This document shows positions 18,847 to 36,634 of a stretch of DNA of 64,000 bases, piece after piece. This DNA comes from Longimicrobiales bacterium (GTDB lineage Bacteria; Gemmatimonadota; Gemmatimonadetes; Longimicrobiales; Gaopeijiaceae). The notes beneath the pieces were generated by a model. That model was not told the origin of the DNA. It made no database searches and worked only from the letters and a program-made list of their open reading frames with translations. Where the stretch lies: assembly GCA_965218295.1 (NCBI GenBank), contig CBDCKN010000003.1, positions 32,001-96,000 of the forward strand, given 5' to 3'. A program made the translations under genes and the position numbers. The number at the start of each line of letters is the position of its first letter. Within the stretch, counting starts at the first letter, position 1.

Positions 18847-18991
18847 CGGCTCGGTGCACTTCCTCAGCCGGCCTCTAGGCGGGGTCTCGCGGCGTTGATG
18901 CATGGCTCTGGGCTTCGCCACATCCTTCCCTGCGCAGGAAGGTGCGCAACGCGGCCTGACCGTCCAGGACCGAAAGGGAGAGCGCCGTCTG

Positions 18992-20368
18992 ATGTCAGAA
19001 CGAGAGGTCGGCGCGGACGGTCTGGTCCGCACGCTGGGCGCGGTGGCCGCCGGAGCGTTCGTCGTCACCAACATGATCGGCTCCGGAATCTTCACGGTCC
19101 CGGCCTTCGTGCGCGTGGCGACGGGGAGCGCCCTGGGCTCATTGGGCGTGTGGGCCGCCGCCGGCTTCCTGGCCCTTTGCGGCGCGCTTTGCTACTCCGA
19201 GCTGGCCACGCACATGCCCACGGCAGGAGGCGAGTACCGCTACCTGACCCGGGGACTCGGCCAAGTCTGGGGCTTCTTGAGCGGCTGGACCTCTTTCGTG
19301 GTGGGGTTCTCGGCCGCCATGGCGGCGTCGGCGTTGGGGGTGATGGCCTACCTGGCCCCCCTGCTCGACGGATGGAACGCCGACGCGCCGCTCATCGAGG
19401 GGCTCGGGATCAGCCAGGGCGCGGCCGGGGCTTCCCTGATGGTCCTCCTGCTCACACTGGTCCACTCGGTGGGCGTGCGCTAGAGCGGTGGCTTCCAGAC
19501 GGTGCTGGCCACCATGGTCCTGGGTTCCATCGGGATCATGGTGCTGGCCGGGTTCTCGACGGGGAACGGCTCGTGGTCGGGGCTGGTGGCCCGCACTGAG
19601 CCCGGCAGCAACTGGTGGGTGGCCTTCCTACAGGTGACTTACGCGTACGCCGGATGGAACGCCGCCGCGTACATCGCCGGAGAGGTACGCGACCCCGGGA
19701 GGAACCTCCCGCGAGCGATTCTCGGGGGGACGCTCTTCGTCATGACGGTCTACCTCCTCATCAACGCGCTCTTCTTCTACGCCCTGCCCCAACCCGAGTG
19801 GGAGCCGGCCATCGCCGTGGGACAGCTGGCCGCGGAGAGGCTGTTCGGCTTCCGGGGCTCGCTGGCCGTCACGAGCCTCATCGCCCTGGCGATGTTCGGT
19901 TCCGTGAGCGCCATGACTGCCGTGGGCCCGTGGATCTACTTCGCCATGGCTCGGGACGGGATGGCGCCACGCTTCCTGGGACGAATCTCCGATCAAGGAC
20001 ACGTGCCGGTGGTGGCCATCGTGGCGCAGGGCATCCTGGCGGCGGTCCTGGCCCTGACCGGAGCTTTCGAGACCCTGCTCATCTACATCGGGTCGTCCCT
20101 GTTGCTCTTCAACGGACTCACCGTGGCGACGCTGTTCGTGTTCCGGCGCCGGGCTGGACGTGCCGACCGACTGGAGAGCACCGGACCGGAGATCTTCCGC
20201 ACACCCCTGCATCTGCTTCCGGCATTGATCTTTCTGGGGATGACGATCGCCGCGTGGATCAACGGCCTCCTGGGCGCTCCTCTTCCTACGGGAGCGGCCC
20301 TGGTCACGCTCGCTGCGGGCGCCGCGGTCTACGCCTTCGGGAACCGCAGAGGGTGGTTCGCAGCCTGA
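18992..20368 (+). pseudogene. APC family amino acid permease with in-frame TAG at 19481-19483
   Basis: ORFs 18902-19483 and 19502-20368 share a frame; NMIGSGIF, AGGEY, YAYAGWN, GEVRDPGRNLP, MARDG. Confidence 0.88.
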
Positions 20369-31152: not shown

Positions 31153-31890
31153 TCAGATCGCTTCGCCGGACTCCAAGGAGGAGATCAGGTTCACACAGCT
31201 ACCCGGTCGAGTCTGGCTCCCCAACGTCACCGTCATGAGACGGGCGAGGGTGCCGGGCTCCTGACGACCTGCGAACGCCCCGGAATTGGCCAGCTCGAAG
31301 AGTGCTCCATCCCCCGGGAGCCGGACGAGGGACGCCTGGACTCGATCGAGCCACTCCTGATACGTCTCGTCGGGCCCGAAGACCATTTTCTGGAGGTTGA
31401 TGCACGGTGCCAGCATGTTGAAGGTGGCCAGGTACTCCCACCTCAGGCCACGCAGGGCGCCCTCGTTCTCTACGATGTCGGGGATGCCCCTGAGAATCGT
31501 GTGGATGTCCTCCTCCGTCAGGCCCAATCGTGCAGCGTGAGCCGCGTTCGCCGAAGACTCGCGAGCCCACCGGAGGGTCTCCAGCTCACCGTCCCGGCTC
31601 TGCACCTCGTAGAGCCCCTCCAGCGCGTCTCCCCCGATGTTGGCCACCACGACCCCCACCAGATTGTCGATGAGCGTGGGTCCTTCATCGACAAGCAGGA
31701 AGCCTGCGGAGATAATCTCGCGGATGGACGTCTCGGCCTGATCCGGCTGCCCTCCGACCTGCTCGACAATAGCCTTCGCCACTCGTGCCAGCGCGGCGTA
31801 GCGCACTTCGGTGAAGTGGGGGAACGGTAGGGTGAACACCGTCAAGCTGTCGGGGAACGGGGTGATCCGCCTGGTGGACACCATGTCGAT
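31153..31890 (-). pseudogene. 3' part of a multi-TM hypothetical gene interrupted by the IS66-family element
   Basis: IDM|VSTRRITPFPD... continues the 35193-36532 frame once the IS and one target-duplication copy are removed. Confidence 0.85.
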
Positions 31891-31939
31891 GTAACTGTTC
31901 GGCCAAGCCGTGGGGAGCGTCGTGTTGTCGGATCGTGTG
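31891..31939 (+). repeat. Left terminal inverted repeat
   Basis: GTAACTGTTCGGCCAAGCCGTGGGGAGCGTCGTGTTGTCGGATCGTGTG. Confidence 0.95.
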
Positions 31940-31983
31940 GTGGGGTCTGGTAACGTGATCCGGAATGTAGTATCGTCGAGGGC

Positions 31984-34254
31984 ATGGCGATGCGGGACGG
32001 CAACGGACATGCGAACGTGGCGCTGGCCGAGGGGCTGGAGGAGCTTTGGCCGGTGCCCGGTTCCGTGGAGTCGGAGCTTGGGGACTGGCGGTCGCTGTAC
32101 GAGCGGGAGCGCGAGCGAGCGGAGGCGGCGGTGGCCCGCGCGGAGGAGTTGCGGTGGGCGGAGGTGCGGGCGCGCTGCGAAGCGGGATCGTGGAAGTGGC
32201 GGTGGGAGGCGTCGCGCCGGAAGCTGAGGGCGGTGATCGCGGAGACGCGGGAGGCCCGCCGCGCGGCGTGGGACGCCCTGGCGTTGCAGCGCGAGGTGGG
32301 GCGTCTGCACGGGCTGCTGCGGGAGGCCGGGGTGGACGCGGGGAAGCGCGGCACGGAGATGGCGCTTCGGATGGAGGTGGCACGGCTTCGCGAGGAGGGT
32401 TGGGCGCTGGAGAAGGCGCTCGATGCCCGCGCGGCCGAGGTGCAGAACCTTCACAAGGCCCGCATCGAAGCGGACGCGGACATCCTGGCGCTGCGGCGGC
32501 AGTTGCGCGAGATGCTCGAGATCCACGGCGAACTGTCGAAGCTGGGGGACCAGCGGGACCGGGTCGAGTCGCTGTCGGAGGAGGTCGGGGCGCTTCGCTG
32601 GGCGCTGAAGGTCTCGGAGGCGTCGAAGGGCCGCCTGACGGCGCGGCTGCGGCGTGCGGTCGAGGCGGGGCGGGCGCGGTCGCCGTCGGCCGCCGACGCG
32701 GAGTTGCGCAAGGCCTTGCGCAGATCGCGGCGCCAGAGGGCGACGATCGGCTCGCTGACGCGGGAGAAGACCCGGCTCGGCAGGAGGATGCGGGCGTCGC
32801 GGCGGCGGATCGAGCGCCTCGAGGGCCAACTGGCGAAGCTTCGCGCGTCGCGCACGGTGCTGCCGAAGGGGCAGTCCGGCGGCGCGTGCGAGAGGCAGGA
32901 GCGACCGCGTTCGGGGCGGCGGCGGGGCCAGCAGCCCGGCACGCCGGTCCACGGCCGCACCCCGCGCCCGGGGCTTGAGGAACGCACCGAGGAGCACAAC
33001 CCGCCCGCCGATGCGCGGGTGTGCCGGGGTTGCGGGAGCCCGTACGCGGCCAACGGCGCCGAGGAGTCGGCCCTCGTCGAGATCGAGGTCCGGGCGCACC
33101 GGCGGGTGATCCGCCGCCCGCGCTGGCGGCGGACGTGCGGGTGCGCGTCGTCGCCCGCCGAAGTGACGGCGCCCCCCGTGCCTCGGCTGTTCGCCCGCAC
33201 GCCGTACGGGACGAGCGTCTGGTCGCGCTTCCTGTTCGAGCGCTACGCGTGCCTGCGCCCGCTGCACCGGGTCTGCGGGTGGCTGTCCGACCAGGGTCTG
33301 CCGGTCTCGCCGGGCACGCTGGCGGACAGCGTGCACCGCTTGGCGCCGTTGTTCGAGCCGGTGGGCGCGGCGATCCTCGCGCACCAGAACGGCTCGGCGC
33401 TGCGCCATGCCGACGAGACCAGCTGGCGGGTGCGGGCGCTGCGCGACAGCGACGGATCGGGGTACGCGTGGCTGTGGATCTCGGTCGGCCGCGGCGCGGC
33501 CTACTTCCATGTGGATCCGTCACGCAGCGCCGAGGCGGCCCGGAAGCTGTTCGACGGGGCGCTGTGCCCGACGGTCCTCGTCTGCGACCGCTACAGCGGC
33601 TACAAGAAGCTGGCGCGTCTCCTCGGGGGCAGGGTCACGCTGTCGTTCTGCTGGGCGCACATGCGCAGGGACTTCATCCGGTGCGCGGCCGGGCACGTCC
33701 ATCTGACCGGCTGGTGCCGGGAGTGGCTCGGGCGGATCGCCACGGTCTACCGCCTGCACAAGGCGCGGCTGGAGCTCCACGACCCCGGCCTCGAGCGCCA
33801 GAGCCCGGCGTTCGACGCGGCGCACGACGCGCTGAGCGAGGCGCTCGGCGGCATGTTCGCGGCCTCCGAACGCCAACTCGCCCGCCTGTCGCCAAAGGCG
33901 AGGGAGGGAGGGCCGCTGCGCTCGCTCCTCAACCACCGCGAGGGGCTGAGCGTCTTCCTCGACCGGCCCCGCGTGCCGCTCGACAACAACCTCGCCGAGC
34001 GGCTGCTGCGCGGCCCGGCCATCGGGCGGCGCCTGTCGTTCGGCTCCGACAGCGAGTCCGGCGCCCGGTTCACCGCGCTCATGTACTCGGTGACCGGCAC
34101 CCTGAGGCTGAACGGCCTCGACGTGCCGCGCTGGCTCGCCGACTGGTTGGCGGCGTGCGCGCGCGGCGGCGGTCGCCCGCCGGGCGACCTGTCGCCCTGG
34201 CTGCCGTGGTCGATGGACGCCGGACGCAGGCGCGAAATGACGGCGTCCGCATGA
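31984..34254 (+). CDS. IS66-family DDE transposase (TnpC-like) with long N-terminal coiled-coil extension
   Basis: GQQPG, CRGCG zinc-finger, HADETSW, VCDRYSGY, CWAHMRRDF, DNNLAERLLR. Confidence 0.92.
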   Translation: MAMRDGNGHANVALAEGLEELWPVPGSVESELGDWRSLYERERERAEAAVARAEELRWAEVRARCEAGSWKWRWEASRRKLRAVIAETREARRAAWDALALQREVGRLHGLLREAGVDAGKRGTEMALRMEVARLREEGWALEKALDARAAEVQNLHKARIEADADILALRRQLREMLEIHGELSKLGDQRDRVESLSEEVGALRWALKVSEASKGRLTARLRRAVEAGRARSPSAADAELRKALRRSRRQRATIGSLTREKTRLGRRMRASRRRIERLEGQLAKLRASRTVLPKGQSGGACERQERPRSGRRRGQQPGTPVHGRTPRPGLEERTEEHNPPADARVCRGCGSPYAANGAEESALVEIEVRAHRRVIRRPRWRRTCGCASSPAEVTAPPVPRLFARTPYGTSVWSRFLFERYACLRPLHRVCGWLSDQGLPVSPGTLADSVHRLAPLFEPVGAAILAHQNGSALRHADETSWRVRALRDSDGSGYAWLWISVGRGAAYFHVDPSRSAEAARKLFDGALCPTVLVCDRYSGYKKLARLLGGRVTLSFCWAHMRRDFIRCAAGHVHLTGWCREWLGRIATVYRLHKARLELHDPGLERQSPAFDAAHDALSEALGGMFAASERQLARLSPKAREGGPLRSLLNHREGLSVFLDRPRVPLDNNLAERLLRGPAIGRRLSFGSDSESGARFTALMYSVTGTLRLNGLDVPRWLADWLAACARGGGRPPGDLSPWLPWSMDAGRRREMTASA

Positions 34255-35132
34255 GCGAGCGCATCGAATGCCGCTACCACGGGCGCGACTTCACCGCCGC
34301 GGAAATGGCGCTGCTGCGCCGACTGATCGCCGGACCGCCCGCGCTCAACCGCCACGCCCTGTCGAAGGAGTTCTGCCGGCGCATCGGCTGGTTCAAGCCC
34401 GACGGCGGGCTCAAGGACATGATGGCGCGCGTCACCATGCTCGCCATGCACAGCGACGGCCTCATCGTCCTGCCGCCCCCGAAGTGGAGGCAGAAACGAC
34501 CCGGCCCCATCGTCTTCGGACAGGACACCGAACCGCCCCTCTTCCCCCCGCCCACGATCCTCGACGAGGTCCGCCCCCTCGAACTCCGCACCGTCGTCGG
34601 CGGCACCCGACAGGGCAGGCTGTGGAACGAGTTCGTCGCGCGCCACCACTATCTCGGCTACAAGACCCTCGTCGGCGCCCAGATGCGCTACGCCGTCCAC
34701 GACCGCAACGGCTGGCCGCTCGCCATACTCGGCTTCAGCACCGCCGCCTGGTCCCTCGCTCCACGCGACCGCTTCATCGGATGGACCCCGACCCTGCGAA
34801 AGAAGAACCTGCCGCTCGTCATCGACAACCCCAGGTTCCTCATCCTGCCCTGGATCCGCATCCCCAACCTCGGATCCCACATCCTCGCCCTCGTCCGCCG
34901 CCGCCTGCCCCGCGACTGGACCCGCCGCTACAACACCACCCCCGTCCTCATCGAGACCTTCGTCGAGGTCCCCCGCTTCACCGGCGGCGTCTACAGGGCC
35001 TCCGGTTGGATCCGCGTCGGTACCACACGGGGACGAGGGCGCTACGACACCGCCAAGCAGTACGGCAAGCCCACCAAGGATGTCTGGCTCCGCCCGCTCG
35101 CCAAGCACTGGAAGCGCATCCTCAACCGCTGA
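34251..35132 (+). CDS. DUF4338 domain protein (Druantia DruA-like), 293 aa
   Basis: HHYLGY, GAQMRY, RDRFIGW, RFLILPW, NLGSHIL, LIETFVE, GGVYRASGW, GTTRGRGR; ATGA overlap with transposase stop. Confidence 0.88.
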   Translation: MSERIECRYHGRDFTAAEMALLRRLIAGPPALNRHALSKEFCRRIGWFKPDGGLKDMMARVTMLAMHSDGLIVLPPPKWRQKRPGPIVFGQDTEPPLFPPPTILDEVRPLELRTVVGGTRQGRLWNEFVARHHYLGYKTLVGAQMRYAVHDRNGWPLAILGFSTAAWSLAPRDRFIGWTPTLRKKNLPLVIDNPRFLILPWIRIPNLGSHILALVRRRLPRDWTRRYNTTPVLIETFVEVPRFTGGVYRASGWIRVGTTRGRGRYDTAKQYGKPTKDVWLRPLAKHWKRILNR

Positions 35133-35143
35133 GCACCCCCACA

Positions 35144-35192
35144 CACACGATCCGACAACACGACGCTCCCCACGGCTTGGCCGAACAGTTAC
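35144..35192 (-). repeat. Right terminal inverted repeat
   Basis: Exact reverse complement of 31891-31939. Confidence 0.95.
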
Positions 35193-36532
35193 ATGTCGAT
35201 CCGCTCCGCCCTCGTGATCAGATAGAGATCGTTCTGTGCAGGATGGGAAGCGGCCTGGCGGAGCGCGTCGAGCTCGTCGCTCGAGAAGCCGCCCTCGATC
35301 TGCAGGACGAGGTCCCGCCCCACACCCTCCTGGAAGATGTCCGGGAAGTTAGGGCTGGGGAACCAGGGGGTCGCGTAGTGCGTGGCAGGTGGTAGCTCGA
35401 GGTGCTCCGGGTGCGGCCCAGCGGAACCGACAAAGGCCACGTTGTTCATAGCCCGCCCCGCCTCCAAGGCGTCGATGGTAGGATCAGTGTCCACGCGATA
35501 GCGGCGAAGCGCCTCCGCCGCTCCCGCCATCTCCTGGACGGAGAGGAACTGGGGGATGGCGATGTCCGCCAGAACGGGACCCACAGAGCTGGCCAGGGAG
35601 ACCGTGATGGTCGGGACGACGACCACGATGAAGAGGAGCACCACCAGGAAGGCGGCGCTTCGAAAACGCCGGCCTTGACCGAGGGAACCCGCCCCCATGA
35701 CCACCTGGTCCCCTGCCTCCTCCAGCTCGTTCGTCCAGTCCACGACCTCCTGATGGATCCGCTCGATGCCGCCTTCCTGCGCCCGCCAGGCTGACAGGGC
35801 CAGTCGGACTCGGACGAACTGGAACCCGTGGATGGTTCCCCCGAACACGAGGAACACGAGCGTCGGTGCCAAGGTCACCAGCCAGATCTCTCGCTCGGTG
35901 AGAAGCTCACGGGCGGCCAGCACCACGGATAGCGAAAAGCCCACAGCGAGCCAGAGAGCACCAGCGAGGATCAAGGCCGCCGCGGCGAGACGCAGTTTGG
36001 TGAGCCGGGTCCGGTCGGCCTCGGAAAACCGGGAAAAGTGCCGTTTCCCCATGAGGAGGAACCCCTGGTCACGACGGAGATCCGTGGCGACCTCGGCGAT
36101 GGTCAGCAAGCCATACCCGAGGTCGGCGGCACGCCCACCTGCCCTCACCAGAGACTGAAGGAGGAAGAACGCCCCGAACAGAATCGCGGCGCCCACGAGA
36201 CTTACGGTCAGCCCCAGGGCCCAGTTGTCCTCCAGCGGACCGAGGCTCCAGAACTCCTGGGGTGTGGCCAGGGACCAGATGAGGGGAGTCACCAGGACGA
36301 TGCTTCCCAGCCAGGCCAGCGTCGTGATCTTCCAGAGAGCTCCCTGTATCCACTCGAACCCCGGGGGCGGCCAGGGTAGACGTACCCCACTCCGGTCTTC
36401 TCTGGTGCCCTTACGGAACTGTTGCGCCGGGGCGTCTTTCGACGCCTCGGGATACGGCGGCGGCCCACCTGAAGACTCCGGGGGTGACGTGGGTGGCGTC
36501 GGCTCCGGTGGGGTCAGTTCGTCTTCGCTCAT
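35193..36532 (-). pseudogene. 5' part of the IS-interrupted multi-TM hypothetical gene
   Basis: MSEDELTPPEP start with RBS, about five hydrophobic segments, ends AERIDM at the target duplication. Confidence 0.85.
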
Positions 36533-36634
36533 TGTGCTTCCTCTAGGCGGTGAACCGTCGAGACGGGGCCTGTAGGAATACCGACTCAAGAGCCTGCTTT
36601 GGGCAAGGACTTTCCTACCGCTGTCCGGTCTCCG

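Follow-up and report, generated by a model that had tools for sequence, protein, structure and literature searches.

The 64,000-nucleotide stretch of Longimicrobiales DNA analysed here (the window) contains an IS66-family element of 3,302 bp (31891..35192) with two genes, one for a transposase and one for a protein of the Pfam family PF14236, which bears the name DruA. The locus raises the question whether this second gene is defence cargo or a working part of the transposon, and what its product does. Three options had been considered in the first-pass annotation, a DNA-modifying or protective factor, a transposition cofactor and stand-alone defence cargo. Our analysis makes the last of these the least likely.

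Boundaries and copies of the element

The element is exactly delimited, as had been described from the letters alone. Sequence and repeat search agree on perfect 49-bp inverted repeats with 100% complementary arms and on an 8-bp target duplication, ATGTCGAT, at both ends (Table 1). The repeat tool reports 51 nt rather than 49, because the neighbouring target bases (AT/AT) pair too. Deletion in silico of the element and one target copy yields a single host frame of 708 codons on the minus strand, the 5' part of which encodes a hydrophobic product with no Pfam family above the cut-off. The left end is separated from the transposase start by 93 bp, and a sigma-70-like promoter was not detected in the region (0 found, 0.1 expected).

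Table 1. Features of the element and of the host gene that it interrupts, in window coordinates
Feature	Position	Strand	Basis
Interrupted host gene, 3' part (host DNA outside the element)	31153..31890	-	frame reconstruction
Left target duplication copy, ATGTCGAT	31883..31890	.	sequence
Left inverted repeat, 49 bp, starts GTAAC	31891..31939	+	sequence and repeat search
ORF1, IS66-family TnpC-like transposase, 756 aa	31984..34254	+	Pfam, NCBIfam
ORF2, DUF4338/PF14236 gene, 293 aa, predicted Mom-like GNAT	34251..35132	+	Pfam, model, profiles
N-terminal three-helix domain of the ORF2 protein, aa 1 to ~75	34251..34475	+	full model
GNAT domain of the ORF2 protein, aa 105-293	34563..35129	+	predicted model, profile, residue mapping
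Right inverted repeat, 49 bp	35144..35192	-	sequence and repeat search
Right target duplication copy, ATGTCGAT	35193..35200	.	sequence
Interrupted host gene, 5' part (host DNA outside the element)	35193..36589	-	frame reconstruction

The further copies envisaged for the host assembly exist. The genome holds seven, six of them identical and one with three 1-nt indels, and the 8-bp duplication is exact in five and off by 1 nt in the remaining two. The seven copies occupy six sites with different target duplications, which rules out an assembly artefact. In one sequencing run (X1), a contig joins across the insertion site. Judged from these copies, the element is intact, mobile and recently multiplied. 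An end-to-end circle junction was not seen among the joints listed for seven sequencing runs, the contigs of which drop rare forms. Among related loci, repeats together with an exact 8-bp duplication are present in 37 of 74 (22 GTAA, 10 GAAA and 5 GTAT).

The transposase and the IS66 family

Canonical IS66 elements, such as IS66 and IS679, have the gene order tnpA-tnpB-tnpC, and the family is characterized by ends that start with GTAA and by an 8-bp target duplication. The element shares with them the DDE_Tnp_IS66 transposase, the GTAA ends and the duplication, but differs in the absence of tnpA and tnpB, the long perfect repeats, the fixed downstream GNAT gene and a long extra N-terminal region of the transposase. 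ORF1 matches DDE_Tnp_IS66 (PF03050) with E 3.6e-53 and the NCBIfam IS66 transposase model NF033517 with 264.9 bits (cut-off 180). The catalytic-type domain spans aa 407-695, and D477, D535 and E672, near-invariant among relatives, are inferred to form the DDE triad. Four cysteines (347, 350, 385 and 387) are conserved, and the N-terminal region of about 300 aa has only weak coiled-coil-type Pfam matches. Over its core, the transposase shares about 29-33% identity with its best matches among plasmid IS66 transposases.

Pfam detects neither a tnpA nor a tnpB domain in ORF1. TnpB_IS66 (PF05717) has no match in the host genome (90.7% complete), nor in any of the genomes G000, G064, G203 and G992; in the control scan, 3 of 14 genomes were positive. 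Third-position GC is of the coding type in ORF1 (0.94) and ORF2 (0.92). Two long overlapping shadow frames, with values of 0.72 and 0.74, are not of that type and were rejected as genes.

The ISBst12 group consists of single-ORF elements, and the ISDge4 transposase has 449 aa and one end with GTAAC (PMC12898284). Our element resembles the group in lacking tnpA and tnpB, in its 8-bp duplication and in the GTAAC start, but it has two overlapping genes and a transposase about 300 aa longer than that of ISDge4. The single ORF that defines the group does not apply to close relatives of the element either, since all 57 informative ones have a second ORF.

The second gene as a fixed part of the transposon

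The ORF2 protein matches PF14236 (DruA, formerly DUF4338) with E 3.1e-39 and 135 bits (cut-off 27), and the ATG of ORF2 overlaps the TGA of ORF1 (ATGA at 34251-34254). Together with the PF03050 match, this bears out the two-gene layout with an ATGA overlap that had been noticed at first sight. The overlap is retained in 34 of 40 relatives. Where the transposase is at least 39% identical, the DUF4338 gene is present at 57 of 57 informative loci, against 0 of 28 loci with more distant transposases, and the pairing is constant across three bacterial phyla. By the NG86 method, dN/dS is 0.24 for the second gene versus 0.43 for the transposase core, and lower for the second gene in 727 of 742 usable pairs. 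High GC compresses dS in this method, and for that reason we rely on the relative values of the two genes only. On this comparison the second gene is under purifying selection and better conserved than the transposase. Locus counts, selection and gene overlap together support the earlier view of DUF4338 as an integral component of the transposon, which makes it more than the "passenger" it had been called.

The first-pass annotation also saw the gene as standing "instead of tnpA/tnpB". This holds for the present lineage, but not in general. In one relative (L179), tnpB, DUF4338 and tnpC occur all together, so that the DUF4338 gene is probably no substitute for TnpB, and replacement of TnpB as a general rule is contradicted. 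The closest IS66 relatives without DUF4338 (L097-L099, 36-37% transposase identity) have one transposase frame in the locus, as in the ISBst12 group, which implies that the gene is dispensable for IS66 transposition in general. A derivative (L047) retains the DUF4338 gene and is missing the transposase.

Kinship of the ORF2 protein to phage Mu Mom

When the AlphaFold2 model of the ORF2 protein (pLDDT 91) was compared with 48,161 solved chains, the first rank went to Mu Mom (8bv8_B; Z 14.7, rmsd 3.5, 168 aligned), and the next GNAT had Z 12.5. Foldseek placed Mom ninth among near-tied GNATs, and in a viral structure library Mom-annotated and other phage proteins were the top matches. The ORF2 protein is therefore predicted to have a GNAT fold, with Mom as the best solved match. 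Mu Mom (PDB 8bv8, Pfam PF25680, PHROG 1384) moves glycine from Gly-tRNA to the N6 of adenine in double-stranded DNA (PMC13219725), and like ORF2 it is encoded by a transposable element.

Profile comparison points in the same direction. A 100-row profile of the IS clade and a 10-row Mom alignment match in HHalign with probability 97.8 and E 1.2e-12, while an ordinary GNAT from the window, run as a single-sequence control, scores 0.4. The kinship is clear because a Mom alignment was used. Mom as a single sequence gives a weak match (HHalign 6.0; HMM 7.2 bits versus 5.4 for the best of 2,000 shuffles). PHROG 1384, "Mom-like DNA modification protein", matches the ORF2 protein with E 0.0015. The Pfam Mom family PF25680 does not match the ORF2 protein at E 0.1, and the best-scoring relative of the ORF2 protein reaches 26.2 bits (cut-off 27.1). 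A sequence search of solved structures with the ORF2 protein alone gave no match, and an alignment-profile search gave only Tn5 transposase, through transposase-fused rows.

The active site residues of Mu Mom are H58, Y59, R111, S124, D149 and Y159 (PMC13219725). ORF2 residues H133, Y134, R195, S209, E239, G245 and Y248 correspond to Mom H58, Y59, R111, S124, D149, G156 and Y159, and alignment A1 shows all seven positions conserved in 88 of its 100 rows, alignment A3 in 37 of 41; the E239 column holds D in 55 and E in 36 of 100 rows. An active site match with Mom is predicted from the model. The first-pass annotation had linked the HHYL motif with Mom-type enzymes, and fold search, profile comparison and residue mapping agree with that link. 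Mom R151 is essential as well (PMC13219725). R242, one position off, is present in 66 of 100 rows and invariant in 41 IS66 rows, and R151 itself varies in the Mom alignment.

The differences from Mom are also marked. Identity is 16%, and the ORF2 gene resides in an insertion sequence and not in a lytic phage. The HTH-like insertion of Mom (aa ~175-209), essential in Mu (PMC13219725), is missing from the IS clade, with 13-25 residues between the anchor columns in 98 of 100 rows (22 in 72), compared with 36-56 in Mom and 55-60 in phage versions. The ORF2 protein also has an N-terminal helical domain, which neither the sampled phage versions nor several of the versions fused to transposases possess. 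Modelled alone from a single sequence, this domain reaches pLDDT 52.9 and a best fold match of Z 4.9, and its Atlas matches are unnamed; the poor stand-alone model gave no clear match to a helix-turn-helix or other known fold, and the family may be unlisted.

The Mom authors consider the substrate not predictable from structure (PMC13219725). Charged tRNA is the target of GNAT toxins, tRNA is also bound by Mom (PMC13219725), and overexpressed Mom is lethal (PMC7261163). ORF2 could thus encode a tRNA-acylating toxin of the TacT/AtaT type, which would slow growth or make the host retain the element. The element has no antitoxin gene, no TacT/AtaT-like toxin is among the best 50 rows of a wide fold search, and seven copies are tolerated in the genome, which makes a toxin very improbable. 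The substrate could also be a protein, as proteins or small molecules are the substrates of most GNATs near ORF2 in the fold searches, and the DNA-binding insertion of Mom is missing. This possibility is best judged in the light of the relatives.

Relatives in transposons and phages

According to database annotations, ORF2 relatives are fused to or located beside IS4, IS50/Tn5, ISAs1, IS701 and UPF0236-type transposases, with fusions at either end. These proteins belong to the same GNAT clade and have the conserved residues, but in our element the gene is separate and downstream. Each transposase partner group forms its own branch in the tree, as does a second IS66 lineage with the DUF4338 gene upstream of tnpC. 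P0140 (IS66-fused) and P0141 (DDE_Tnp_1-fused), with near-identical GNATs, were rejected as a partner swap, since each of the two clusters comprises 1-2 members and could reflect nested insertions. Our literature search, which did not extend to ISfinder or to likely papers by Iyer and Aravind, found no paper on the DUF4338-transposase partnership.

Stand-alone phage relatives adjoin genes for DNA polymerase, clamp loader, nucleotide kinase, methylase or dCMP deaminase, and the scan of their neighbouring frames revealed no transposase. They keep a long Mom-like insertion, and their profile matches are 99.9 to the IS clade and 96.0 to Mom.

The fusions at either end would suit a cofactor that promotes or stabilises transposition by acylating or binding a protein, be it the transposase or a host factor such as a nucleoid protein or a protease target. 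Protein targets have indeed been proposed for DUF4338 GNATs in a paper on DndF (PMC10853773). Against such a cofactor, the conserved residues are the Mom-specific set, the several partner transposase families make a single protein interface unlikely, as we infer, phage relatives have no transposase in the scanned frames, and L047 keeps the gene without one. We therefore regard a protein-directed role as rather unlikely.

Copies with 90% identity over 3.2-3.3 kb are present in Longimicrobiales and Acidobacteria records, and relatives occur in metagenome runs from sponges and corals. Sponge metagenomes are enriched in restriction systems (PMC5099237). Contigs of relatives span both genes in three metatranscriptome runs from two studies, but these matches, mostly below 95% identity and in contigs only, do not tell whether, from which strand or how strongly the genes are transcribed. 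Of 72,556 plasmid records, only 2 contain an ORF2 relative, so plasmids of that collection are not the main carriers.

Relation to Druantia

Pfam and Atlas names call the ORF2 protein DruA, and DUF4338 occurs in Druantia type I (PMC7251935) and fused to DndF, where it has been described as a GNAT (PMC10853773). The Druantia and DndF proteins belong to the same Pfam family PF14236 (PADLOC PDLC00001/2). A stand-alone DruA-like gene could aid the host, as genome-wide modification could restrict or confuse phages. However, the PADLOC DruA score of the ORF2 protein is 20.7 bits, over part of the model only, compared with 267.7-967.2 bits for four DruA-type proteins. It has 293 aa rather than ~400-700, stands in a transposase context, and in the tree the only DruA-type row forms a long branch of its own. 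DruA-type proteins match the IS-clade profile with probability 89.6, and the HHY motif is not kept in true DruA. By these comparisons the ORF2 protein is not a DruA orthologue.

The genomic context also speaks against defence cargo. Druantia type I is an operon that includes druB-E, with the DruE helicase among them, unlike the two-gene element, which is without a nuclease partner, and MZB/DUF1998 (DruE, PF09369) has no match in the 90.7% complete host genome (control positive in 8 of 14). No Druantia-type family was detected in the 51 of 85 long window frames scanned (Pfam, E 1e-8), in line with the first-pass annotation. Transposase fusions are atypical of cargo. In a sample of 401 Pseudomonadota genomes, 17 of 30 inspected PF14236 loci are at a transposase and four are DruA-type, so that counts of Druantia from that domain alone are likely inflated. 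A stand-alone defence function is thus quite improbable.

A link of another kind is provided by the adenine mark called by PacBio, CAGCTGNC, that Druantia type I leaves although no methylase gene accounts for it (10.1101/2024.04.14.589459). As true DruA is without the HHY motif, this mark is indirect support for DNA modification.

A proposed function in DNA modification

We tentatively favour the view that the ORF2 enzyme acylates DNA adenines and so shields transposon DNA from restriction enzymes; we give this view a chance somewhat short of even. The Mom-like predicted shape makes it likely that the enzyme marks DNA and that the transposon itself profits from the mark. An acyl or aminoacyl group would be transferred onto DNA adenines, the donor being a charged tRNA, as for Mom, or acyl-CoA. 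The overlapping stop and start codons would couple translation, so that the enzyme is made alongside the transposase, and this coupling would limit an activity that is lethal in excess. With Mom's DNA-gripping insertion lost, DNA may be reached through the N-terminal helical domain, while in other IS families a fused transposase may serve this end; the mark would then fall mostly on or near the element and on transposition intermediates. In this way the element would survive when it is excised, integrated or passed between unrelated, restriction-rich hosts. One objection is that an insertion sequence travels from cell to cell within a carrier, most of which a strictly local mark would leave unprotected on entry.

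The same chemistry could have another purpose, namely an adenine mark at or near the ends that acts as a transposition switch or labels used ends. Dam methylation regulates the transposition of IS10 and IS50. The Mom evidence from fold, profile and residues applies equally here, the gene overlap and the transposase fusions are in favour, and loss of the DNA-binding insertion fits a tethered local enzyme. Head-to-tail dimers with 7-9-bp spacers show that element ends get reused as targets or junctions. The ends of the partner transposases are unrelated, so no shared target motif is evident, and we regard a switch as somewhat unlikely.

The proposal of DNA modification can be widened. At least five IS transposase lineages may each have acquired, and retained under strong selection, a tRNA-fed DNA hypermodification enzyme that descends from Mom, has dropped the DNA-binding insertion and is directed to its target by the transposition machinery. 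They would form a hitherto undescribed class of epigenetic writers encoded by transposons, and the same chemistry would explain the Druantia type I mark. This broader scenario is possible, if doubtful.

Implications

For annotation, PF14236 is named DruA, yet most of the inspected Pseudomonadota matches are IS genes, and ORF2 is probably not a phage defence gene despite its database label. Base-modifying shields or switches have been described for phages and defence systems, and a literature search outside ISfinder found none for insertion sequences. If the proposal is true, ORF2 would provide a small, testable enzyme for a new DNA chemistry, possibly aimed via the transposase, and a candidate for the unexplained Druantia type I mark. 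Should DNA modification by the enzyme prove true, even mobile elements of the simplest kind would carry their own base-modifying shield or switch.

The element and its copies

The first-pass annotation described an exactly delimited element with two genes only, and repeats, duplication and both reading frames were all recovered. Its perfect inverted repeats measure 49 bp, the 8-bp target duplication ATGTCGAT flanks it at both ends, and it interrupts a host frame. Both genes lie on the plus strand. The first encodes an IS66 transposase of 756 amino acids (Pfam E 3.6e-53; NCBIfam 264.9 bits, cut-off 180), and the second, whose start overlaps the transposase stop, a 293-amino-acid PF14236 (DUF4338) protein (Pfam E 3.1e-39), so that profile searches confirmed both family assignments. 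The search of the host assembly (G000) for further copies, which had also been proposed, yielded seven in all, six of them identical, the seventh with three 1-nt indels; they occupy six sites with differing target duplications. In one sequencing run (X1), a contig bridges the insertion site and carries 16 other letters instead, as an empty allele of a diverged strain would. Judged from these sequences and from its relatives in other genomes, the element is real, active and widespread.

The canonical IS66 layout is tnpA-tnpB-tnpC. TnpB_IS66 was not found in G000 (90.7% complete) or in three other carrier genomes, and the element thus appears to move without TnpB.

Coordinates of the element, its relatives and neighbouring features
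Feature	Location	Strand	Remark
IS66 element	window, 31891-35192		3,302 bp
Interrupted host gene	window, 31153-36589	minus	708 codons, 708 aa
Amino-acid permease gene	window, 18899-20365		
In-frame stop in permease gene	window, 19481-19483		
Tandem dimer, G000	C12:175839-182451		
Element remnant, G000	C13:207732-208035		
Element remnant, G000	C12:183229-183502		
Three tandem dimers, genome G203	L230 (= L069), L231, L232		
Tandem dimer	L009:4408		
Tandem dimer	L090:2794		
Shortened derivative	L047:5218-6919		1,702 bp
IS66 with tnpB, DUF4338 gene, tnpC	L179:4294-7099		viral contig
DruA-type gene after TniQ gene	L200:1333-3635		
GNAT-only DUF4338 frame	L229:3-2058		218 aa
Mom-like gene, Microbacterium phage Dropshot	L194:145-878		

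The interrupted host protein is without a Pfam family. A paralogue of its C-terminal part, 43% identical, is encoded on contig C5. This insertion site alone among the six shows a long reading frame that stays open when the element is removed. In G000, two related elements survive as remnants (DNA identity about 77-87%), one of them adjoining the tandem dimer. The permease gene is split by a single in-frame stop, across which the Pfam match runs; the stop is either a nonsense change or a sequencing error.

Head-to-tail dimers with spacers of 7-9 bp occur once in G000, three times in G203 and in two other loci. The chance that a random insertion falls within 10 bp of an element end is about 4-6 in 100,000, and the dimers point to re-integration of a circle or to insertion directed at the element's own ends. 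The spacer of L230 is identical to the target duplication, in L231 the duplications of the two copies are offset by one base, and L232 is a simple match to neither pattern. In another genome, G992, two copies lie 3,609 bp apart.

The second gene as part of the transposon

Querying GTDB genomes with the second gene confirmed at least 252 stretches among the 361 candidates listed, and the best 74 loci were analysed. Their records are titled Longimicrobiales, Gemmatimonadaceae, Acidobacteria, Bryobacterales, Alpha- and Gammaproteobacteria, and others. For 72 of them, a same-strand match to an IS66 transposase ends no more than 3.5 kb upstream; the exceptions are L010, truncated at the contig start, and L061, without an upstream transposase. 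By a strict test, repeats were recovered together with an exact 8-bp duplication in 37 of these 74 loci and alone in 17, and 20 showed neither.

The reverse search, with the transposase core, gave 111 loci, of which 85 were informative (transposase end reached, with 400 bp of room) and 26 were set aside. The second gene lies directly downstream in all 57 informative loci with transposase identity of at least 39% and in none of the 28 below that value; the counts are not independent, as the 57 (7 own copies, 17 from genomes already found with the second gene, 33 via the transposase alone) include many copies from the same genome. Across 41 distinct elements, median identity is 82% for the second protein versus 66% for the transposase core, and dN/dS (NG86) is 0.24 versus 0.43, lower for the second gene in 727 of 742 usable pairs (820 in total). 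The two trees are broadly congruent, with some swaps (L012, L080), and the 4-nt stop/start overlap is kept in 34 of 40 relatives. The pairing in both search directions, the conservation above that of the transposase core and the retained overlap argue, as the first-pass annotation had proposed, that the second gene is integral to the element.

Two variants were also seen. The L047 derivative is bounded by both repeats and by an exact 8-bp duplication, with the GNAT gene whole and the transposase mostly lost. In L179 the three genes are consecutive, and a second copy (L181) sits in inverted orientation at the opposite end of the viral contig.

Relation to DruA and Mom

Although the second protein shares PF14236 with Druantia DruA, its PADLOC DruA score is 20.7 bits versus 267.7-967.2 for four DruA-type proteins; by this measure it is not DruA. 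A DruE-type MZB domain was not found in G000. That the gene is defence cargo of the transposon is quite improbable. The DruA-type gene at L200, immediately after a TniQ gene, is probably Tn7-like cargo.

In the predicted model (pLDDT 91), a proline-rich linker joins a three-helix N-terminal domain to a GNAT domain. The suggested comparison with Mom and GNAT folds placed phage Mu Mom first in a wide structural search (Z 14.7, rmsd 3.5, 168 aligned; next Z 12.5) and ninth among near-tied GNATs in Foldseek; a profile against a 10-row Mom alignment gave probability 97.8 and E 1.2e-12. Mom residues H58, Y59, R111, S124, D149, G156 and Y159 correspond to H133, Y134, R195, S209, E239, G245 and Y248, all seven conserved in 88 of 100 rows, and six of the seven are active-site residues according to the Mom crystal paper (PMC13219725). 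The second protein thus appears to be Mom-like in predicted fold and residues. However, it lacks the essential HTH-like insertion of Mu Mom and has only an offset counterpart of R151. The N-terminal domain was detected in all unfused IS-type proteins sampled except L228, and it is missing from phage versions and several ISAs1/IS701 fusions, which suggests that a DNA-reaching module may come either from this domain or from the transposase.

Among 13 viral loci, five stand-alone phage proteins sit amid replication and nucleotide genes; they have kept a long insertion and connect the IS clade to Mom. The stand-alone proteins on phage contigs L185-L191 (238-254 aa), with genes for DNA polymerase, clamp loader, glycosyltransferase, methylase or dCMP deaminase nearby, are candidate new phage DNA modifiers; L186 has an additional DUF4338 protein of 402 aa. 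In phage Dropshot, a tRNA-Gly gene comes next after the Mom-like gene, in keeping with Mom's use of Gly-tRNA as donor.

Possible function

We tentatively favour, at slightly under an even chance, an enzyme that would be co-produced with the transposase and would acylate DNA adenines, so that the acylated transposon DNA could withstand restriction. Dam methylation controls IS10 and IS50, and the second protein might likewise serve as a switch that marks the ends, which we regard as unlikely. Taking shield and switch jointly, DNA would be the substrate with a likelihood of about two in three. A cofactor directed at protein is slightly less likely than the switch, and a GNAT toxin acting on tRNA very improbable.

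Prior reports and the wider pattern

No description of a DUF4338 or Mom-like gene as an IS component was found in the literature searched, mostly titles and abstract openings, and an IS66 variant with a built-in gene for a putative Mom-like enzyme is apparently uncharacterised so far. The association may already be on record in Iyer 2009 and 2013, which reportedly survey Mom-family systems, in Gourbeyre 2010 or in ISfinder. PMC10853773 describes DUF4338 as a GNAT fused to DndF, and its supplements and those of PMC13219725 may give such architectures. A term search of 10.1101/2025.09.15.676423 gave no match. Further related literature includes PMC7824862, PMC4738411, 10.64898/2026.05.12.722862, PMC7251935, PMC12839542, PMC7261163, PMC12898284, PMC5099237 and 10.1101/2024.04.14.589459.

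Many of the 110 longer relatives of the second protein have a transposase domain in the same chain. Five fused proteins tested in NCBIfam exceed the cut-offs for IS4 (two models), IS701, ISAs1 and IS66. Because these cut-offs are passed and several clusters are large (P0165, 89 members; P0202, 60), the fusions are real, although many close IS66 fusions are singletons and may stem from reading through a frameshift. Among 401 evenly sampled Pseudomonadota genomes, 26 have a PF14236 match. Of the 30 loci inspected of 44 matches listed (two from genome G201), 17 have the gene fused to a transposase or with one as its same-strand neighbour; the other 13 comprise four DruA-type loci and nine fragments, contig ends or unassigned cases. 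In a tree of 56 domains, in which several deep forks are without support and the DruA and Mom rows form long branches, the grouping of the GNATs mostly follows transposase family; IS66 falls into two separate branches, the gene lying downstream, as in the window, or upstream.

At L201, L202 and L223, a DUF4338 gene precedes a UPF0236-type ORF. The frame at L229 lies downstream of cas1 and cas2, and a transposase was not found in that locus.

The fusions and adjacent pairings with several transposase families make the second gene a general transposase partner, and IS66 with its Mom-like gene is one case of a broader pattern among IS families.
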